From: an uncultured Pirellulales bacterium
GTDB lineage: Bacteria > Planctomycetota > Planctomycetia > Pirellulales > S012-138
Length of the DNA stretch: 29,328 nt
Direction: 5' to 3'
NCBI GenBank assembly: GCA_964445985.1
Contig: CAYUMU010000083.1
Coordinates: forward strand, 1-29,328
Shown here: positions 225 to 12,686 of the stretch, in pieces
Layout of the letters: each line of letters begins with the position of its first letter
Position numbering within the stretch: position 1 is the first letter of the stretch
Program-made: the position numbers and the translations under genes
Notes under the pieces: generated by a model
The model's input: the letters and a program-made list of their open reading frames with translations, nothing else
The model's database searches: none
Told to the model about the DNA's origin: nothing

Positions 225-1067
225 GAAGGCTCATATTCCCCGCGAAAGGGACGCACCTGGAATCCGTTAGAGTCAGGAAAATTGAAAATTGGGGGAGGCC
301 CTTGCTGACGCTTCGGGTTGAAAGGGGAGGGATTCGCTCTCGCCGGGTTTTTGGGAATGCTTTGTCAGCCGGAGGGCTTGTTGGCAAGTGGTGCTTGAGG
401 CTGGGTAGGGATGTGGATTGTGATATGGTTTGTTGATAGGAATAACATGCCATAAAACCTAGGCACGACCCAATACATATTTTTTGCCGTTGGGCCATTT
501 TTTCTGAAATTGAGGCGAGCCGAACATGAACGTTCCGGCTTCTTTGGCAGCCGCCATCCGATCGGTGGGGCTGGGCGCGGACGGCCTTCGGCCGGTGGAA
601 GGCTTCAGCGACGCTTGAGGGCTGGTAGGCGCCTGCGTATTGAGATGGCCACGCACCGCGCCCTTCGCTGGGGCTCAGGGGGCGTGCCACACCATGCGGA
701 ATAGTGGTCGCGCATCCCTCGACGATGCCAGCCCACGCTAACCAATGCCACCGGGGATATGCCCCGTGGGCAACCCATTGCTGGCGATAGCCCGATTCTT
801 GTCTCGTTTGCGTACTGGCTCTGGCAAACCATCGAGGGTGCCGTTGCTTCGGCCAGGCATGTGGAACAGGGCCGTCGGCGTAGCATGGGTTTTTCTGGCG
901 AAACCCACTTCCGTGAGCTATTCTGCGGATAGCTCGAATGCGATCATCGCATGCGCATGTCTCTATTCTTGTCCGTGCCTTTCCCATTGTATCGACATCC
1001 GCTGGAACCGAGGGCGGCCCAACGAGCGCGCGCTCGTTGGCTTACCCTTACAAGGAGAAACCCCGTC

Positions 1068-2732
1068 GTGAGTCCTACCAACTGCAATTCTCGGAATTTT
1101 CGGCCGGTGCTGCTGGCGGGCGTTGCCCTGTTCAGCCTTGCCTTCGCTGCCCAGGGCAAAGCCCAAGAGCAACAGCCCAACATTCTGCTGATTGTGTCTG
1201 ACGACACGGGGTATGGCGACTTGGGGCCGTATGGCGGCGGCGAGGGACGCGGGATGCCTACGCCGGCCATTGATCGGTTGGCGGCCCAGGGGATGACGTT
1301 TTTCTCATTTTATGCCCAACCGAGTTGCACGCCGGGCCGCGCGGCCATTCAAACCGGCCGCATCCCCAATCGATCGGGCATGACCACGGTGGCTTTCCAG
1401 GGCCAGGGGGGCGGATTGCCGGCGGCGGAGTGGACCTTGGCTTCCGTGCTCAAAACGGCGGGCTACAAAACGTATTTCACCGGCAAGTGGCATCTGGGGG
1501 AATCGGACTACGCGCTCCCCAACGCGCAAGGTTACGACGTGATGGAGCACTGCTTGCTGTACCATCTCAACGCCTATACCTATGGGGATCCCAAGTGGTT
1601 CCCAGACATGAGCGACGAACTGCGGGCGATGTTCAACAAGGTGACCAAGGGGTCGCTATCGGGCAATGCCGGCGGCAAGGTGACCGAGGACTTCAAGGTG
1701 AATGGCGAGTACGTGGACACGCCCGACAAGGGCCTGGTGGGCATTCCCTTTTTGGACAAGTACGTGGAACAATCGGGCTTGAAGTTCTTGGAAGACGCCG
1801 CCAAGAACCCCGACCAGCCGTTCTTCATCAACATCAACTTCATGAAGGTGCATCAGCCGAACTTGCCGGCGCCGGAGTTCGTGCACAAGTCGATTTCCAA
1901 ATCCAAGTACGCCGATTCCGTGGTTGAGTTGGATACGCGGATTGGCAACGTGATGGAGAAACTCAAGTCGCTGGGCTTGGATAAGAACACGTTGGTGTTT
2001 TACACGACCGACAACGGCGCCTGGCAAGACGTGTATCCCGACGCCGGGTACACGCCGTTTCGCGGCACCAAAGGCACGGTTCGCGAAGGTGGGAACCGCG
2101 TTCCGGCCATCGCCGCGTGGCCGGGCAAAATCAAGGGGGGGGTGCGCAACCACGACATCCTCGGCGGGCTGGACCTGATGGCCACGTTTGCCGCCGTGGC
2201 CGGTATCAAGCTGCCCGAGAAAGATCGCGACGGAGAGCCGATCTACTTCGACAGCTACGACATGACGCCGGTGCTGCTGGGGACGGGCAAGTGCGACCGC
2301 AAATCTTGGTTTTTCTTTACCGAGAATGAGCTCACTCCCGGCGCCGCCCGCGTCAACCAGTTCAAGGCGGTCTTCAATCTGCGGGGCGACAACGGACAGG
2401 CGACCGGCGGATTGGCGGTCGATTCCAACCTGGGCTGGAAGGGGCCGGATAAATACGTGGCCACGGTTCCGCAGATTTTCGACCTGCTGCAAGATCCGCA
2501 AGAACGCTACGACCTGTTCATGAACAATTTCACGGAGCACACCTGGACGCTCGTGACATTCAACCAGGAAATCGCCGACCTGATGAAGACCTACATAAAA
2601 TACCCGCCGCGCAAGTTGCAGAGCGAGGTGTATACCGGGCCGATCACGATTTCGGAATATGAACGGTTCAAGGCGGTGCGAGACATGCTGGAGAAGAACG
2701 GCGTGAATATTCCGCTGCCGACCGGCAACTGA
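1068..2732 (+). CDS. Secreted formylglycine-dependent sulfatase (arylsulfatase family).
   Basis: C-x-P-x-R motif CTPGRAAIQTGR; metal-binding LLIVSDDTGYGDLG; internal GKWHLG. GTG at 1068 is preceded by AGGAGA with a 9-nt spacer and followed by a signal peptide (VSPTNCNSRNFRPVLLAGVALFSLAFAAQGKA). The ORF is open back to 951, but that extension has no RBS or signal-peptide logic. Confidence 0.85.
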   Translation: MSPTNCNSRNFRPVLLAGVALFSLAFAAQGKAQEQQPNILLIVSDDTGYGDLGPYGGGEGRGMPTPAIDRLAAQGMTFFSFYAQPSCTPGRAAIQTGRIPNRSGMTTVAFQGQGGGLPAAEWTLASVLKTAGYKTYFTGKWHLGESDYALPNAQGYDVMEHCLLYHLNAYTYGDPKWFPDMSDELRAMFNKVTKGSLSGNAGGKVTEDFKVNGEYVDTPDKGLVGIPFLDKYVEQSGLKFLEDAAKNPDQPFFININFMKVHQPNLPAPEFVHKSISKSKYADSVVELDTRIGNVMEKLKSLGLDKNTLVFYTTDNGAWQDVYPDAGYTPFRGTKGTVREGGNRVPAIAAWPGKIKGGVRNHDILGGLDLMATFAAVAGIKLPEKDRDGEPIYFDSYDMTPVLLGTGKCDRKSWFFFTENELTPGAARVNQFKAVFNLRGDNGQATGGLAVDSNLGWKGPDKYVATVPQIFDLLQDPQERYDLFMNNFTEHTWTLVTFNQEIADLMKTYIKYPPRKLQSEVYTGPITISEYERFKAVRDMLEKNGVNIPLPTGN

Positions 2733-5719: not shown

Positions 5720-6264
5720 GAGCTTTTGATTCGGTTTTGCGGGGAGAGCGGGGCTGGCGGAGCCATGTGGGTGCGAACGGAAATCGGCTCCAACATCCCC
5801 TTGATACTGTTCGGACGTTCCCCATTCTGGCAGTTTTTGGCAGGCGACTCCAGAGTGCGCGCCGCGGGATTTTAGGCCGGGGAGGGGGGTCTACTCCCCA
5901 GGCTGGCCCCGATAAGTTCTCTGCGAACTTGCGTTTGCCGGATGGTTGGAACCCCGTGGCTGGCTGTCAACTTTTTGGGACGCGGGTGTGCAAAACCTGA
6001 CGGCGAAGGGGTCTTGGCGGCTAGGACCGGGAGCGGAACACCCCCTCGGGTGGGGAGGGTGGCGGCCAGCAAATTGCAGCACGATTGAACTTTTCTGGTC
6101 GCAGGAATGACCCAAAATAGATGAGCCAAGCAACATTGCGATCGCTTTCCGTCGTTTGTGATGGTATTCAAGGCCGTTAAGTTATGGCATGCAAAGTGCT
6201 TGCGTACTACGGCGACCAGCAGCGCGCGTGAGGCGCACCGCGTTTTTCAGGAGTAGTGACCTCG

Positions 6265-7320
6265 ATGGCCCCATCTCGCTTACCGCGTCGAACCGTGCTG
6301 CAGGCATTGGCTGCTGGAACTTTAGGCACAGGCTACTGGATTTCGGGTGGGAGCCGGCCAGCCCAAGCGGCCATGGACCCCAAGGTGAAGGCCGCGGTGG
6401 AGCGGGGTTTGGACTGGGTTGCCAAAGCTCAGAACCGCGTGGGGCGGTGGGATGCTTCGAACCAGTACCGGGTGCCGATGACAGCCCTGGCTGGCGTGGC
6501 GCTGGCTTGCCAGGGTTCGACGACCACGCAAGGCAAATATGCCGAGCAGATTCGCCGGGCAACGGATTACTTGATTGCCCAATCGCGGTCGAATGGCCTG
6601 ATCGGCGAGATCAACGACCACCGCTACACCTACGGCCACGGCTTTTCGATGCTGTTTCTGTCGCAAGTGCTTGGTGAAGAAGAAGATATGCAGCGGCGGA
6701 AGCGGTTGACCGAAATTCTCACCAAGGCGGTCGATTTTTGCGTGAAGGCGCAAACGAACGCGGGCGGCTGGGGATATGTGAGCGCCAAAGACGGTGGCGG
6801 GTTCGACGAAGGGTCGACGACGGTGACCCAGGTTCAGGGATTACGCGGCTGTCGGAATGCCGGCATTCCGGTTCCCCGGGAATCGATTGAGAAGGCCATC
6901 AAATACATTCACAACTGCACGATGCCTGATGGGGGCGTTTGTTACAGTTCGCAAAGTCGCGGCGCCAGTCGCCCACCGATCACGGCCGCCGCGGTCGCCT
7001 GCCTGTTTAGTGCTGGCGAATACAAGAGCGACTACGTGAACAAGTTGCTCGACTACTGCAAACGCAACATTCACGACATTGAGAACCCTCGCGACGTATT
7101 TGGCCACTGGCATTACACTTACTACTACTACAGTCAGGCCGTCTACCGCATGCCGGGCAAAGATTGGATCCCCTACCGCGACAAGCTTTACCCTCGCCTG
7201 CTGCGGGAGCAAAGTTCTGAAGGTAACTGGAGCGGTGACATCGGGCCCATTTACGTGACCGCCCTGAACCTGACGATGCTGCAACTCGAGAACAGCTACC
7301 TGCCGATCTATCAGCGGTAA
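6265..7320 (+). CDS. Tat-exported prenyltransferase / squalene-oxidase-repeat (terpene-cyclase-like alpha-alpha toroid) protein.
   Basis: Twin-arginine leader SRLPRRTVLQALAAGTLG...AQAA. Repeated QxxxGxW-type motifs (NRVGRWDAS, NAGGWGYV, MPDGGVCYSS, SEGNWSGD). ATG 6265 is 11 nt after CAGGAG; GTG 6256 is an alternative start. Confidence 0.7.
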   Translation: MAPSRLPRRTVLQALAAGTLGTGYWISGGSRPAQAAMDPKVKAAVERGLDWVAKAQNRVGRWDASNQYRVPMTALAGVALACQGSTTTQGKYAEQIRRATDYLIAQSRSNGLIGEINDHRYTYGHGFSMLFLSQVLGEEEDMQRRKRLTEILTKAVDFCVKAQTNAGGWGYVSAKDGGGFDEGSTTVTQVQGLRGCRNAGIPVPRESIEKAIKYIHNCTMPDGGVCYSSQSRGASRPPITAAAVACLFSAGEYKSDYVNKLLDYCKRNIHDIENPRDVFGHWHYTYYYYSQAVYRMPGKDWIPYRDKLYPRLLREQSSEGNWSGDIGPIYVTALNLTMLQLENSYLPIYQR

Positions 7321-7327
7321 CCTGCTG

Positions 7328-7355
7328 GCGCAGATCAACTTAAGTTGATCTGCGC
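7328..7355. terminator. 28-bp perfect palindrome (gcgcagatcaactt|aagttgatctgcgc) 8 nt after the stop of the 6265-7320 gene. Candidate terminator hairpin or dimeric protein-binding site.
   Basis: Exact 14+14 palindrome read from the sequence. No T-tract follows it, so an intrinsic-terminator call is weak. Confidence 0.35.
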
Positions 7356-7639
7356 AGGGAGTTCCCCTCGCCGGCGGCTGCATGGCTGGGCCGGGAGTGG
7401 GATAGTAGCAGGTTTGCTTATCGAATTTGAAGCAGATTTCATACTGCCTTGTTGAACTTTCCCTCGCCTTGAGGACACCCATTTTACCGAGCAGGGTAGG
7501 CGGAAACGATTTCCCAACGCGGGGTCATCTTCTCTCCGCGGCCCGATCTCGCCCTCGACCTGGCGAGGAGTGGTGCGGATGGCCGCAGGCACTCGTTTAG
7601 AGCGGTGGCCGTGCCCTCCGGATTTTGGTGGGGATAACT

Positions 7640-7669
7640 TTGTGGGTTTCGGAGACAAACGGCTATAAT
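7640..7669 (+). promoter_or_regulatory. Sigma70-like promoter candidate (TTGTGG, 18 nt, TATAAT) upstream of the ECF sigma operon.
   Basis: ttgtgg at 7640-7645 and tataat at 7664-7669, about 110 nt upstream of the sigma-factor start. No canonical ECF-type GGAAC...CGT autoregulatory motif with correct spacing is seen. Confidence 0.25.
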
Positions 7670-7780
7670 AAACACCCAATACGTTGACCGGCCTTTTCGC
7701 CGCCACCGGATTACGCTGGCGGGCGTGCAGCATTGGCTGCCGAAGGACTTGGAGGCAGGCAACGTACGGGAGGAGCTGCC

Positions 7781-8341
7781 GTGACGATTGACGTGGACCA
7801 AGTAACACGCGAGCACTTTCCCCGCATTCATCGGGCCGCGCTGGTTCTCACGGGTAATCCCTGGGATGCCGACGACCTGGCTCAAGAAACGTTTTTGGTG
7901 CTGGCGGCGAAGGGTCACGAGTTTCAAGGACGCAGCAGCACCTACACCTACGTTTATGGCATTTTGTTGAATTTGGAACGCCGGCATCGGCGACGCTCGG
8001 GCATGCAAAAACGAAAGCTACGCGTACTGTGGGACAACGAGCCCCGGGAGCAATCGGTGCCCGCGGCCGAGACGGCGATTGAAGTGGCCGAGTGGAAAAA
8101 CAGTTTGTGGGCGGTGGTTGCCCGGCTGCCTGACGGCCAGCGTCAGGCATTGGTGTTGCGGTTCAGCGAGCATTTACGTTACGACGAGATTGCCGAAGTG
8201 CTGGGTTGCCCGGTGGGCACCGTGAAGTCGCGGATTTTCAATGGATTGACGGCTTTGCGAGAGCAGTTTGGCGCCGGCGACGCGAACGCGGCTGGCGACA
8301 TTCCCCGGCATGCTTGGGAGGATCTCACCCATGCCATTTAA
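7781..8341 (+). CDS. ECF-type RNA polymerase sigma-70 factor (sigma-24 family).
   Basis: Region 2 DADDLAQETFLVLAAKGHEFQGRSSTYTYVYGILLNLERRHRR; region 4 HTH QRQALVLRFSEHLRYDEIAEVLGCPVGTVKSRIFNGLTALRE. GTG 7781 preferred because GGGAGGAG (7768-7775) lies 5 nt upstream. TTG 7733 is an alternative start. Confidence 0.85.
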   Translation: MTIDVDQVTREHFPRIHRAALVLTGNPWDADDLAQETFLVLAAKGHEFQGRSSTYTYVYGILLNLERRHRRRSGMQKRKLRVLWDNEPREQSVPAAETAIEVAEWKNSLWAVVARLPDGQRQALVLRFSEHLRYDEIAEVLGCPVGTVKSRIFNGLTALREQFGAGDANAAGDIPRHAWEDLTHAI

Positions 8342-9131
8342 GCCCAAGTTAGTCTGTTTGGATTTCTCGACCGAGCACGGTGAGAACGAGTCAGCGAACG
8401 CGTTTGGAACTGATGCAGCGCGTGGCGCCCATGGCGATCGCCCCGAACCTACCTCGACCGACATGAACCTGTTTTTTGACGACGATCTGCTGGCCGATTT
8501 GCCGCCTGAGTTGCAGGCGTTCGCCTCGCAATTGAGTGACGAAGCGGATGGGCTGGTCGCGGCTTTTCCGGCGCGGGAAGTCCATTCCGCGCGGGTTGCC
8601 GGTGGAACGAATGGAATGCCGGTTGTTCTTGAAACATGTCTTTCTGAATCATCGCCCGAGTTTACGGTGGGCGGTTCGGGTGGCGTGACTGGTGAGGCTG
8701 GGGTTGGGGTTGGCGGCTGGCGTTGGCCGGGGCGACTGGCTCAGGTGGCCGCCATGATTGCGGTCCTGGCGGGGTTGAGCGCTCTGCCGCTGCAACGCGA
8801 TCATCGGGTGGCGAAAGAAGACGAAGTGGATCGGGAAAGCCAAGCGGGACGGGAAAGCCAAGCGGGCCGGGAAAGCCAAGTGGGCCGGGAAAGCCAAGTG
8901 GGCCGGGAAAGCCAGGTGGCGAGCATGGCCGAGCCAGCGGTGCCGCGGCCAGGGCGAGAGGCCCCATCGATTCAGGAAGTTGAACCAGTGGGGGCCGAAG
9001 CGGCGGTGATTGAGCCGGCAGGGTTATCGCCCACGGGGATGCCAGCCACCACGTTTGTTGAGTTATCGGGCGCGGAACAGGAAGCGTTGTTGGATTTGCT
9101 GAGCGAAACCGCGTCGATGGGATCGATTTAG
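8331..9131 (+). CDS. Putative single-pass membrane anti-sigma factor, translationally coupled to the ECF sigma gene and carrying (RESQ[AV]G)x5 repeats.
   Basis: ATG at 8331 overlaps the sigma stop (ATGCCATTTAA). One predicted TM segment (WRWPGRLAQVAAMIAVLAGLSALPL) sits between an acidic N-domain and a C-terminal repeat-containing domain. Gene order is sigma then partner. I recognise no zinc-finger anti-sigma motif. Confidence 0.5.
   Translation: MPFKPKLVCLDFSTEHGENESANAFGTDAARGAHGDRPEPTSTDMNLFFDDDLLADLPPELQAFASQLSDEADGLVAAFPAREVHSARVAGGTNGMPVVLETCLSESSPEFTVGGSGGVTGEAGVGVGGWRWPGRLAQVAAMIAVLAGLSALPLQRDHRVAKEDEVDRESQAGRESQAGRESQVGRESQVGRESQVASMAEPAVPRPGREAPSIQEVEPVGAEAAVIEPAGLSPTGMPATTFVELSGAEQEALLDLLSETASMGSI
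8832..8921 (+). repeat. Five tandem 18-bp units cgggaaagccaagcgggc (coding RESQAG/RESQVG), in frame inside the anti-sigma candidate.
   Basis: Direct reading; units differ only at A/V codon positions. Confidence 0.9.
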
Positions 9132-9175
9132 TCCGCAGGCGGGCCGACGTCGCACTCTCCCACCAGTCTGGACCC

Positions 9176-10666
9176 ATGACGAAGATGCGTAAAGTAACGC
9201 TGCTGGTGATGTTCTCGACTGCCTGCCTGGGCTGGGCAGGCGGTGTTGGGCTGCTGGGTGTTGGGCCGCTGGGTGGGGCGTTGCCGGGAACCGGGTTGTG
9301 GGCAGCGGAACCGGATTTATCGGGGTTGGATGTATCGAAACCGGAATCTGACCTGCCAGAATTGGCTCAATCAGCGCCTGTTCAATCAGCGCCTGTTCAA
9401 TCCCGTTCCGTGCCCTCGGATGCGAACCAGCTCAATGCCGAGCAGTTGGCTCGGCAACTTTCGGCTGCCACGGTAACCATTCGCGTGACCGTTCCGCCCG
9501 ACGCGGGCGTGACGGTTTGTTCGGGGGTATCGCTGGGCGATGGGTTCCTGGTGACGTACAGCAACCATCCGGGCAATGCCGAGTATCGATTGACATTGCC
9601 CGATGGCGCTCAGGCCCAGGCCGATGCCCGGGTGATTGATGTCTATTCGGGGCTGACCTTGCTGCAGTTGGCGGCCCAGCCGGCGGTTGAGGGGGGGGCG
9701 GCGAACCGCGAGCCGATCCAAGTCAAGAGTTTGACGCCGTGGGCGGAGCTTCCGGCCGCGGGCGCCACCATTCTCACGGCGGCCGCCGCGGGGCTCGAGC
9801 AACCGGTCGTGTCGCGAGGTATTTTGGGCGGGGCCGAACGCACGTTGAGCGGGACCGGCTTGCCGCCGCTGCTGCAGTGCGATGTGCGGACCACCGACAC
9901 CTCGAGCGGCGCGGCCCTGATTGATGAACGGGGACGGCTGGTGGGTATCGTGGCCGTGACCGCTCGGGAAGGTCGCAGCGGCGGTTGGACCTACGCCGTG
10001 CCTGCCAGCCATGTGCAGCGATTGCTGCGAGCCTATGCCCAAAAGCAAGCCGGCGACAATCGGCTGGTCATCCTGCGCCGCCAGCGCCCGATGCTGGGGC
10101 TCTCCATGGTTGCGGGCGAAGAGTCGGGCAGCGTGATCGTGGAGCGGCTCGAAGCGCAAGGGCCGGCCAAGAAATCGGGCGTGCTCCAGTCGGATGAGAT
10201 TCTGGAGGTCGACGGCCTCAAGGTGCGCAGTGTGTATCAGGTGGTGGCCCTGGTGATGAAAAAGCAGCCGGGCGACCGCATGGAATTCATGATTCGCCGC
10301 GGCGAGCGCACCGAAAAGATCGCCGTTACGCTGGAAGGCGGATCGGTGGTGGAGCCTTCGGAAGTGGTTCGCAATGGCGGCGAGTTGGCGGAGCAAAAGA
10401 TCACCGTGCGTCGCAGTGGCGATCAATACAATATTGATCGGCCCGTGATTCGCCAGTTGAACCAACCGGCCGAGGGGGACGATCCGCTGCCCTCGGCTCC
10501 CGCGCCGGCCGCGAATGCGGCGCAGTTGGCGTTGATTCAAGAGCAAGTCAAGCGGTTCGCCGCGTATATCGAAAAGCTGCGGGTCGATGTGCGCGACCGC
10601 GATGAGGAGTTGATGCAACTCCGCGCCGAGCTCGAAATGCTGCGAAAACAGCTCGAATCGCGATAG
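9176..10666 (+). CDS. Secreted HtrA/DegS-like trypsin-fold serine protease homologue with one PDZ domain and a C-terminal coiled coil.
   Basis: Signal peptide. Protease-fold motifs GDGFLVTYSNHPGN (His), DTSSGAAL (Ser). PDZ segment GLSMVAGEESGSVIVERLEAQGPAKKSGVLQSDEILEVDGLKVRS...GDRMEFMIRRG. C-terminal heptad-like LALIQEQVKRFAAYIEKLRVDVRDRDEELMQLRAELEMLRKQLE. The expected Asp position aligns to Gly (YSGLTLLQL), so the triad may be non-canonical. Confidence 0.6.
   Translation: MTKMRKVTLLVMFSTACLGWAGGVGLLGVGPLGGALPGTGLWAAEPDLSGLDVSKPESDLPELAQSAPVQSAPVQSRSVPSDANQLNAEQLARQLSAATVTIRVTVPPDAGVTVCSGVSLGDGFLVTYSNHPGNAEYRLTLPDGAQAQADARVIDVYSGLTLLQLAAQPAVEGGAANREPIQVKSLTPWAELPAAGATILTAAAAGLEQPVVSRGILGGAERTLSGTGLPPLLQCDVRTTDTSSGAALIDERGRLVGIVAVTAREGRSGGWTYAVPASHVQRLLRAYAQKQAGDNRLVILRRQRPMLGLSMVAGEESGSVIVERLEAQGPAKKSGVLQSDEILEVDGLKVRSVYQVVALVMKKQPGDRMEFMIRRGERTEKIAVTLEGGSVVEPSEVVRNGGELAEQKITVRRSGDQYNIDRPVIRQLNQPAEGDDPLPSAPAPAANAAQLALIQEQVKRFAAYIEKLRVDVRDRDEELMQLRAELEMLRKQLESR
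9367..9399 (+). repeat. Tandem 15-bp repeat tcaatcagcgcctgt (codes SAPVQ SAPVQ) in the protease N-terminal linker.
   Basis: Direct reading. Confidence 0.85.
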
Positions 10667-10669
10667 GTT

Positions 10670-10780
10670 TTCCACAACCTGATCGGCGATCCGGCTTATG
10701 CCGAGCAGGTTGCCAGATACCGCGGGCGGATGGCCGAGTGGATGAAGCAGACGGGTGCCCCCACGCCGACGAGCGAATGA
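10670..10780 (+). pseudogene. 37-codon relic of a sulfatase C-terminus (FHNLIGDPAYAEQVARYRGRMAEWMKQTGAPTPTSE*), 3 nt after and in frame with the stop of the protease gene.
   Basis: The translated motif x-NL-x-DP-x-YA...L...W-x-TGD/A is the characteristic last helix of arylsulfatases. There is no start codon and no upstream sulfatase body. Confidence 0.5.
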
Positions 10781-10832
10781 TGGCGCGGGTTTGCCGCGGC
10801 GTGCCGCTCATCTGGCCGCGGTCGGCGACCTG

Positions 10833-12188
10833 CTAGCGGGTAAACCAGATGAGGAGGGCGACGCCGACCAGCAGCACCGTTCCCACCGCGGCGGCAATGA
10901 GCCATAGTTGCCGCTGGTTCATGTTGTCTTGCTGCTCCAGGGCCTCGGCGACCTGTTCCATGTTGGGGTAGCGATCGGCCGGTTCTTTGGCGACCATTTT
11001 TTGAAACACCTGGTCCAGCCAGGCGGGCACGTCGGGGCGAATTTGCGAGAGGGAGGGGATCGGGCCGGTGCGATGGGCCATGAGTTTGTCGATCATGCCC
11101 TTTCCGGGGTAGGGAATCTGAGCGGTGAGCAGATGGAACATCACGCAGCCCAGGCTGTAGATATCGGCGCGGCCGTCGATGGAGCTGGCGTCGGTGGCCT
11201 GTTCGGGTGCGAGATAGTCGACGGTGCCGATCATTTGTCCGGGGCGAGTCAGGTCTTCGCCGTCGGCCATCGCGCCGTCGTCGTCGAGCTTGGCGAGAAT
11301 GAGGTTGGAAATCTTGATCTGCCCTCGATGGTTGACGATCAGATTTTCGGGTTTGACATTGCGATGATAGATGCCCTGGCCATGCAGATAGGCCAAGCCT
11401 TCGGCCGCGGAGCGGATGAACTCCACGACCGCTTCCACCGGCAACGGGCCGTGCTGTTGAATGATTTGCGCGAGGTCGGCGCCGCCCACGTATTCCATGG
11501 AGAGGAAGTGGATGTCGCCGTCTTCGCCCAGTTCGAACCCGGCCACGAGGTTGCTGTGCGACAGTTTGCGGGTGACTTTGAACTCGCGTTGAAATCGCTT
11601 GAGGACTTCGGTCTTGCTGGCGGCGGCCGGCTTGAGCAATTTGAGGGCGACGATGGCCCCGCTGCCGATGTGCCGCGCCTTGTAGACGGGGCCGGTCGAC
11701 GAACTGGCTGAACGCTCGAGCAGCTGATACTTGCCCACGCGCTTGCCGACGTTGCGGTCGCCCGTGGCGGCAGCGGTTTGGTTGGGGGCAGCGGTTTGGT
11801 TGGGGGCAGGGGGCTGGTTGGGGGCGGGGGCGGCTTTGCCAGCCACGGGCGCGGCGGGCAGGTTGGCCGCGGTTTCGGCTTGGGCCGCTTTGAGCATGGC
11901 TTCGAACGAGGCCTGGGCCGAGCGGAGGGCCGCATCGTAGGCCGCCTTGCGTCGGGCATCGCTCAGCCGGCTGTGGGCGAGCTGCAGTTCTTGCTGCAAA
12001 CGCATGGCCGCTTCGGCCTGGGGGCCGGTGGTATGGGGCCGAACGAGCGCCAGTCTGGATTGGGCGGCGCCGCGAATCACGGCCGGATCGGCCTCGAATC
12101 TTTTCAGGCCAAGCAGCACGTAGAGGTTGGGCGGCTGGTGGACGGGGTCGATGCCCAACCACTGCATGTACGGATCGAAAGGCTCCAT
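10833..12188 (-). CDS. Tail-anchored protein: degenerate J-like domain + protein-kinase-like domain that is a predicted pseudokinase (HRN and SNL in place of HRD and DFG) + C-terminal TM helix.
   Basis: Kinase fold: VALKLLKP (beta3 Lys present), YHRNVKPENLIV, IKISNLILAKL, TVDYLAPEQ. Codons checked on the DNA: cat cgc aat and tcc aac ctc. Gly loop degenerate (RSASSSTG). N-terminus PNLYVLLGL...RPHTTG...KAAYDAAL resembles a J domain lacking HPD. C-terminus LWLIAAAVGTVLLVGVALLIWFTR. ATG 12188 chosen; the ORF is open to 12614 without coding-like content. Confidence 0.7.
   Translation of the reverse strand: MEPFDPYMQWLGIDPVHQPPNLYVLLGLKRFEADPAVIRGAAQSRLALVRPHTTGPQAEAAMRLQQELQLAHSRLSDARRKAAYDAALRSAQASFEAMLKAAQAETAANLPAAPVAGKAAPAPNQPPAPNQTAAPNQTAAATGDRNVGKRVGKYQLLERSASSSTGPVYKARHIGSGAIVALKLLKPAAASKTEVLKRFQREFKVTRKLSHSNLVAGFELGEDGDIHFLSMEYVGGADLAQIIQQHGPLPVEAVVEFIRSAAEGLAYLHGQGIYHRNVKPENLIVNHRGQIKISNLILAKLDDDGAMADGEDLTRPGQMIGTVDYLAPEQATDASSIDGRADIYSLGCVMFHLLTAQIPYPGKGMIDKLMAHRTGPIPSLSQIRPDVPAWLDQVFQKMVAKEPADRYPNMEQVAEALEQQDNMNQRQLWLIAAAVGTVLLVGVALLIWFTR
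11770..11826 (-). repeat. About three tandem 18-bp units (coding APNQTA on the minus strand) in the linker of the pseudokinase gene.
   Basis: gcagcggtttggttgggg repeated; translation gives APNQPPAPNQTAAPNQTAA. Confidence 0.8.
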
Positions 12189-12686
12189 GGCGATACCCCC
12201 AGCCAGATGCATTCCAACAGGTCGGCGAATGCCTTTTATGCGAGGGGCAGAGCGATCGACGGTTGCGGAGGCGCGCCGCTGCAAGTTCGAACATGGTCCA
12301 CCCCCCGGCGGCGTGCCTTGATCGTAACAAGCCTGGCCCTGGTTTGCAGCAGGGAGTTTCGTGAAAGAGAGGAAGTCGTGGGATAGTTGGCGGATCGCGG
12401 GCTGCCCCCTTGCCGTGTGGCGTGTTCTGCATGCTTGCGCCAGTGGGCGTAAGCATGGCGCCCCGTGTGTAGCCGCGACCAGGCATTTCAGCGAATGCCG
12501 GCTGGCCGGCGCTTTACCTTGGCTGGCAACTGCTGTCACAATGGCAGCCAGGCCGGTCAAGCCTGGCGTGACGTGTCGGGAGAAGTCCCCACGGCAACGA
12601 ACGCGAACCGCCAACCGTTAAGCGGGAATCCGTGCCGGCCTCGCCCAACCCAAGACTCCCACCTGCTCCGCCTAGGAGAGCTGTGC

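Follow-up and report, generated by a model that had tools for sequence, protein, structure and literature searches.

A sulfatase pseudogene fragment in the spacer between an HtrA-like protease gene and a convergent pseudokinase gene

Introduction

In the window analyzed here (the whole stretch of 29,328 nt, which is an entire contig of a metagenome-assembled genome and the single contig of P0001), a short open frame resembling the end of a sulfatase begins directly 3' of the stop codon of an HtrA/DegP-like protease gene, in the frame of the protease. This arrangement raises the question of what the segment is and how it came to lie there. It could be a chance likeness, an artifact of assembly, a tail or other element in use, or the debris of a lost gene. 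With a probability of roughly 0.88, these 111 nt are the non-functional 3'-end remnant of a formylglycine-dependent (S1, SGSH/S1_8-like) sulfatase gene, left by a lineage-specific deletion or rearrangement. The features of the locus are listed in Table 1.

Table 1. Features at and around the sulfatase relic, in positions of the window
Feature	Position	Strand	Description
Intact sulfatase	951-2732	+	PF00884 and Sulfatase_C-type tail; ~8 kb upstream of the relic
HtrA/DegP-like serine protease	9176..10666	+	Pfam Trypsin_2 and PDZ; C-terminal coiled coil; TAG stop at 10664-10666
Sulfatase 3'-end relic	10667..10777	+	37 sense codons, VFHNLIGDPAYAEQVARYRGRMAEWMKQTGAPTPTSE; based on homology searches and ungapped alignment
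TGA closing the relic frame	10778..10780	+	Based on frame reading and comparison with the ends of relatives
Spacer from relic stop to kinase stop	10781..10832	.	52 nt, GC-rich, no recognizable feature
Ser/Thr-kinase-like gene	10833..12212	-	Pfam Pkinase, E 2.7e-41; gene call of 459 aa; J-domain-like N-terminus, C-terminal membrane anchor

Results

The Relic Frame

The relic opens with GTT (V) at 10667-10669, continues with TTC (F) from 10670, and has GAA at 10775-10777 as its last sense codon. Counted from 10670, where the first-pass annotation had placed its beginning, the frame holds 36 sense codons and a stop; counted from 10667, it holds 37 sense codons. Re-reading of the sequence returned the coordinates, the frame and the peptide of that annotation exactly. 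There is no internal stop codon. Of the 37 residues, residue 22 is the first Met, and there is no earlier start codon. The GC contents at the three codon positions are 0.62, 0.51 and 0.78, which is gene-like in a sample of only 37 codons. The gene-like GC and the open frame are compatible with a fairly young remnant, and would be compatible with some use as well.

Convincing sulfatase homology runs from ~10667 to 10762 (through ...QTGAP). The TGA that closes the frame may be the original stop codon of the sulfatase gene, though related sulfatases extend at least 18 residues beyond the match (18-51 in most).

Homology to Sulfatase C-Termini

The peptide was searched with phmmer against all PDB chain sequences and, in an index-free search of the 37 residues, against 1.84e9 representative proteins; these two are the only unbiased searches with the relic. 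The PDB search gave just two matches with E < 10, each to a sulfatase-family protein and each at the corresponding place near the C-terminus (2w8s, residues 496-520 of 543; 4upl, residues 490-520 of 569). The search of the representative proteins gave a single match below E 1e-3. This protein, P0121, matched the relic with E 3.8e-4 for the whole library, 35.7 bits and 48% identity. It is an 89-residue fragment with the C-terminus ...EELYDLRADPSCLHDLAGDPSRAEVLATQRSRLRSWMEQTGDP, and covers positions 107-151 of the 154 positions of Pfam SGSH_C. Sixteen of its 18 solved-structure matches are sulfatase-family proteins, and all 16 were aligned near their C-termini.

Further relatives were collected by a motif scan of one genome per species (185,579 species), using the relic and P0121 as seeds, and the loci were confirmed by tblastn. 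The scan yielded 16 genomic loci related to the relic, with 36-59% identity. Open frames of 482-625 residues were found at 13 of them, the remaining three being short or reaching a contig end. The match lies 18-51 residues upstream of the stop in 14 of the 16 loci. Both PF00884 Sulfatase and SGSH_C were detected in all ten relatives scanned, and the best solved structures for the full-length relatives were SGSH (4mhx) and S1_8A sulfatases. Each of the 16 segments gives an ungapped alignment with the relic over EELYDLxxDPxC[LF]HNL[IA]GDPxxAE..LR..L..WMxQTGDP, with the first residue of the relic at the 'C' position. The phmmer matches and these alignments agree with the first-pass annotation, which had assigned the peptide to the last conserved helix of sulfatases.

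The relic scored up to 42.4 bits against these sulfatases, while 500 shuffles of the peptide gave a mean of 17.0 (sd 1.7, maximum 24.3); as the relatives from the genome scan were chosen by their similarity to the relic, tblastn and shuffle-test scores are biased upward. Background matches in ~65 kb of unrelated loci did not exceed 19 bits, whereas the sulfatases gave 30-45 bits.

Given the shortness of the peptide and two empty searches, one might suspect that intergenic DNA resembles a sulfatase motif here by chance alone. The Pfam scan of the 37 residues found nothing at E <= 10, the peptide being too short for the SGSH_C model. The word-index homologue search with a 43-aa query was also empty, which is a limit of the method and is evidence neither for nor against homology. 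However, the one significant match among 1.84e9 proteins is a sulfatase end, both PDB matches are sulfatase-family C-termini, every one of the 16 sulfatase segments aligns gap-free, and unrelated loci score far below the sulfatases. Chance likeness is effectively refuted because of the two phmmer results. Judged by these sequence comparisons, 10667-10777 is genuine sulfatase C-terminal homology, well above chance.

The best relative shows 59% identity over 27 residues (58% over 31) and belongs to a different phylum. Neither a parent nor a nearly identical sulfatase turned up; the best identities in the genome scan were 53-59%, and two metagenome scans gave none closer. In the metagenome scan, exact relic motifs returned nothing, and looser motifs returned three loci, none above 55% identity.

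Absence of the Sulfatase Body

The C-terminal subdomain of these sulfatases ends in the conserved helix (the end of SGSH_C). Its last ~32 conserved residues are present in the relic, and no more. The whole window (29 kb) was searched by tblastn, using 16 sulfatase ORFs as queries, 14 of them full-length and 2 partial. Matches were obtained to the relic (E 1e-7 to 4e-3) and to the intact sulfatase in Table 1, and nowhere else. No 5' sulfatase fragment was found in the window, including the region upstream of the protease module (5720-6255) and the region beyond the kinase-like gene. The earlier statement that no sulfatase body lies upstream is thus confirmed. No catalytic-domain sequence (PF00884, Cys/Ser-x-Pro-x-Arg formylglycine motif) was found for the relic, and it does not have the complete ORF with a start codon and the usual export signal that a sulfatase gene has. 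The relic shows significant homology to one part of a known family, as is seen in pseudogene fragments.

The possibility that the relic is a copy of the intact sulfatase was rejected. The two show no similarity, and the intact sulfatase is from another subfamily, with a different C-terminal type (Sulfatase_C). Some tblastn alignments run upstream, across the stop codon, into the coiled coil of the protease ('EELMQL' against sulfatase 'EELYDL'). Extension of the homology into the protease was also rejected: it takes a 10-residue gap and crosses the stop, and the residues are native to the protease and conserved in its orthologues.

Native Ends of Both Neighbors

The protease orthologues P0002-P0004 show 70-73% identity to the protease. 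They have the coiled coil in common and stop no more than one codon from the same position. The C-termini compared are ...LRKQVGK* and ...LRKQLESR*, and DNA similarity ceases at the stop. Since the stops agree so closely, the TAG is, by this comparison, native and no product of rearrangement. On the other side of the relic, the C-terminus of the kinase-like protein, ...LIWFTR*, and its membrane anchor are kept to the last residues in orthologues, indicating that this 3' end is native too. Because both flanking 3' ends are native, the relic lies in a spacer between two intact genes. The gap between the two convergent stops is 166 nt, of which the relic takes 111 nt, or 114 nt with the TGA.

A single TAG-to-sense change would append 37 residues to the protease, as the first-pass annotation had pointed out. 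In this respect, the locus is similar to C-terminal extensions created by stop loss or readthrough. The frame shared with the protease, which stays open for 37 codons, could be taken as a sign of a functional element: a readthrough or suppression tail, a small independent peptide, or, at the RNA level, a structure or terminator serving the two convergent genes. RNA folding of the spacer is also weakly better than that of shuffled sequences (z -2.4 and -2.2). It is extremely unlikely that such an element exists. The in-frame position has a one-in-three chance of occurring by itself. The orthologous proteases stop at the same point, the DNA downstream of them is unrelated, and no extension conserved in frame is seen 3' of their stops. 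There is no start codon ahead of Met22. There is no terminator-like site in the spacer, and the Rfam scan of the region gave no match. In contrast to a true stop-loss or readthrough extension, the TAG is intact in both assemblies that carry the locus, the orthologues have no tail, and there is no sign of readthrough. No evidence of function was found for the relic, and we infer that it has none. A more specific proposal, that the sulfatase helix is not inert but is occasionally appended to the protease by readthrough or suppression, or is about to be captured as its new tail, is hardly more probable. If true, it would be a live case of a protein acquiring a segment from a dead adjoining gene.

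Synteny and the Junction

The closest available relatives are only ~70% identical at the protein level. In these, a large kinase/FGE-domain gene of the same orientation comes after the protease module, where neither a sulfatase nor the kinase-like gene of Table 1 is present. More distant relatives have the sigma/anti-sigma/protease trio with yet other neighbors. Downstream of the kinase orthologues (51-64% identical), thioredoxin-like, SDR and destabilase genes are found in three of four cases, and the fourth neighborhood is different. An intact sulfatase, which the first-pass annotation had proposed to look for at the orthologous position, was seen beside neither the protease module nor the kinase in six protease or kinase relatives. 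Relic-like DNA downstream of the protease was likewise absent from L001-L006, as for a pseudogene fragment missing at the corresponding position in relatives.

Compared with every relative available, synteny thus breaks both to the left and to the right of the relic. As the relic is missing from these relatives, and no sulfatase adjoins their module or kinase gene, the rearrangement is, as far as these genomes are compared, specific to this lineage. Deletion, translocation and insertion all fit, and the piece that moved may lie on either side.

The contig comes from a metagenome assembly and the join coincides with a gene end, as would be the case if a piece ending at the protease stop had been misjoined to a piece starting inside a sulfatase gene. 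Such a chimera is very unlikely. The independent Logan assembly L029 (run SRR16798009) shows 100% identity over 8885-12601, a stretch that takes in the end of the protease gene, the relic and the kinase-like gene, though a single set of reads may underlie both assemblies. The junction has no repeat to mislead an assembler and shows no break in GC content.

Discussion

Origin of the Relic

The relic is most similar to SGSH/SulfAtlas S1_8-like sulfatases (PF00884 and PF16347 SGSH_C; human N-sulphoglucosamine sulphohydrolase 4mhx, S1_8A 9bb9), aligning gap-free to C[LF]HNL[IA]GDPxxAE...LR..L..WMxQTGDP near their C-terminus. Unlike them, it keeps only ~32-37 of ~480-625 residues, and the catalytic domain, the formylglycine motif, the signal peptide and the start codon are missing. 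Sulfatase genes are very numerous in Planctomycetes and other PVC bacteria, with 110 in Rhodopirellula baltica as an example (PMC6388578). Because the lineage is so rich in sulfatase genes, a sulfatase is the most expected source of gene debris here.

A lineage-specific deletion or rearrangement would have taken out ~450-550 upstream codons of a sulfatase gene, with its left endpoint at the protease stop codon or within a few bases of it. The fragment left behind would now make up most of the 166-nt spacer between the HtrA-like protease gene (+) and the kinase-like gene (-). It would be inert: it lacks its own start codon and a catalytic domain, and the native TAG shuts it off from the protease. 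Its persistence is probably due to the closeness of the two neighboring 3' ends, one of which would be damaged by any further deletion.

The first-pass annotation had suggested a different history, in which the sigma/anti-sigma/protease block or the pseudokinase gene was inserted into a former sulfatase locus. The interpretation of that annotation is partly upheld: a relic of a sulfatase without its body is present, but the insertion has no positive support. With breakpoints on both sides of the relic, either neighbor could have moved. If either had been inserted into a sulfatase gene, the relic would be the 3' half of that gene, but no 5' half is found elsewhere in the window. The module, which includes a prenyltransferase-like gene, is ancestral in relatives, where it is conserved together with the 70-73% identical proteases and the same ends, and is not a recent insert. 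Neither candidate insert is bordered by repeats, target-site duplications or mobile-element genes, and the flanking-repeat scan of the region found nothing. Insertion of the module or of the kinase gene is therefore considered unlikely, and the remnant of a sulfatase gene lost by deletion or rearrangement is the preferred reading.

Bacterial pseudogene fragments are remnants of genes in intergenic DNA, produced by deletion or rearrangement. The relic shares their features: partial homology to a family, loss of the rest, absence in relatives and a position in a spacer bounded by genes. Its one oddity is the left breakpoint, which falls at the stop codon of a neighbor, in frame. As a pseudogene fragment, the relic is genuine but ordinary: it is one more case of a known kind and has little import beyond the locus. 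It marks a lineage-specific breakpoint between the conserved ECF-sigma/anti-sigma/protease module and the conserved pseudokinase gene, and adds one small data point on the turnover of sulfatase genes in a sulfatase-rich lineage. For annotation, 10667-10780 should be labeled a sulfatase pseudogene fragment, not a small ORF and not a part of the protease.

The Neighboring Genes

The protease gene is the last of a four-gene module (6256-10666, +), which consists of a prenyltransferase/SQHop-cyclase-like gene, an ECF sigma factor gene, a putative anti-sigma factor gene, the product of which has no Pfam match, and the HtrA-like protease gene. The four genes are kept in the closest relatives, L001 and L004, and their flanks are always different. 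The sigma/anti-sigma/protease trio is also present in the more distant L035 and L036, again with different flanks. A scan of the genome collection with the protease found no relative.

The protease ORF encodes 496 aa, and the gene call on record starts at Met4. The orthologues have 425-427 residues. The difference in length is due to a ~70-residue N-terminal insertion after the signal peptide (residues ~25-95; ~9240-9450, +), which contains a short SAPVQ-SAPVQ repeat and is absent from the orthologues.

The start of the kinase-like gene is more likely at 12188 (MEPFDP...), judged by the orthologues. The protein does not have either catalytic aspartate, showing HRN for HRD and I-S-N-L for DFG. 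This pattern (HRN and A/S-N-L) is kept by each of the four close orthologues (51-64% identical), while a more distant canonical kinase retains HRD. The protein thus belongs to a conserved pseudokinase family. Its J-like N-terminus is suggested by a weak DnaJ match (E 0.018).

The window's own kinase-like protein (10836-12200, -) was absent from the matches of the homologue search, the best of which is 55% identical. The product of L029 1949-3328 has no Pfam entry in the Logan gene table, despite the strong Pkinase match obtained here (Table 1). The missing records for this protein are probably a database gap and not a matter of biology.

In the linker between the J-like and kinase domains, an 18-nt tandem unit occurs as three overlapping copies (11765-11830). 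The repeats encode APNQ(P/T)(P/A), and this stretch is mostly missing in the orthologues.
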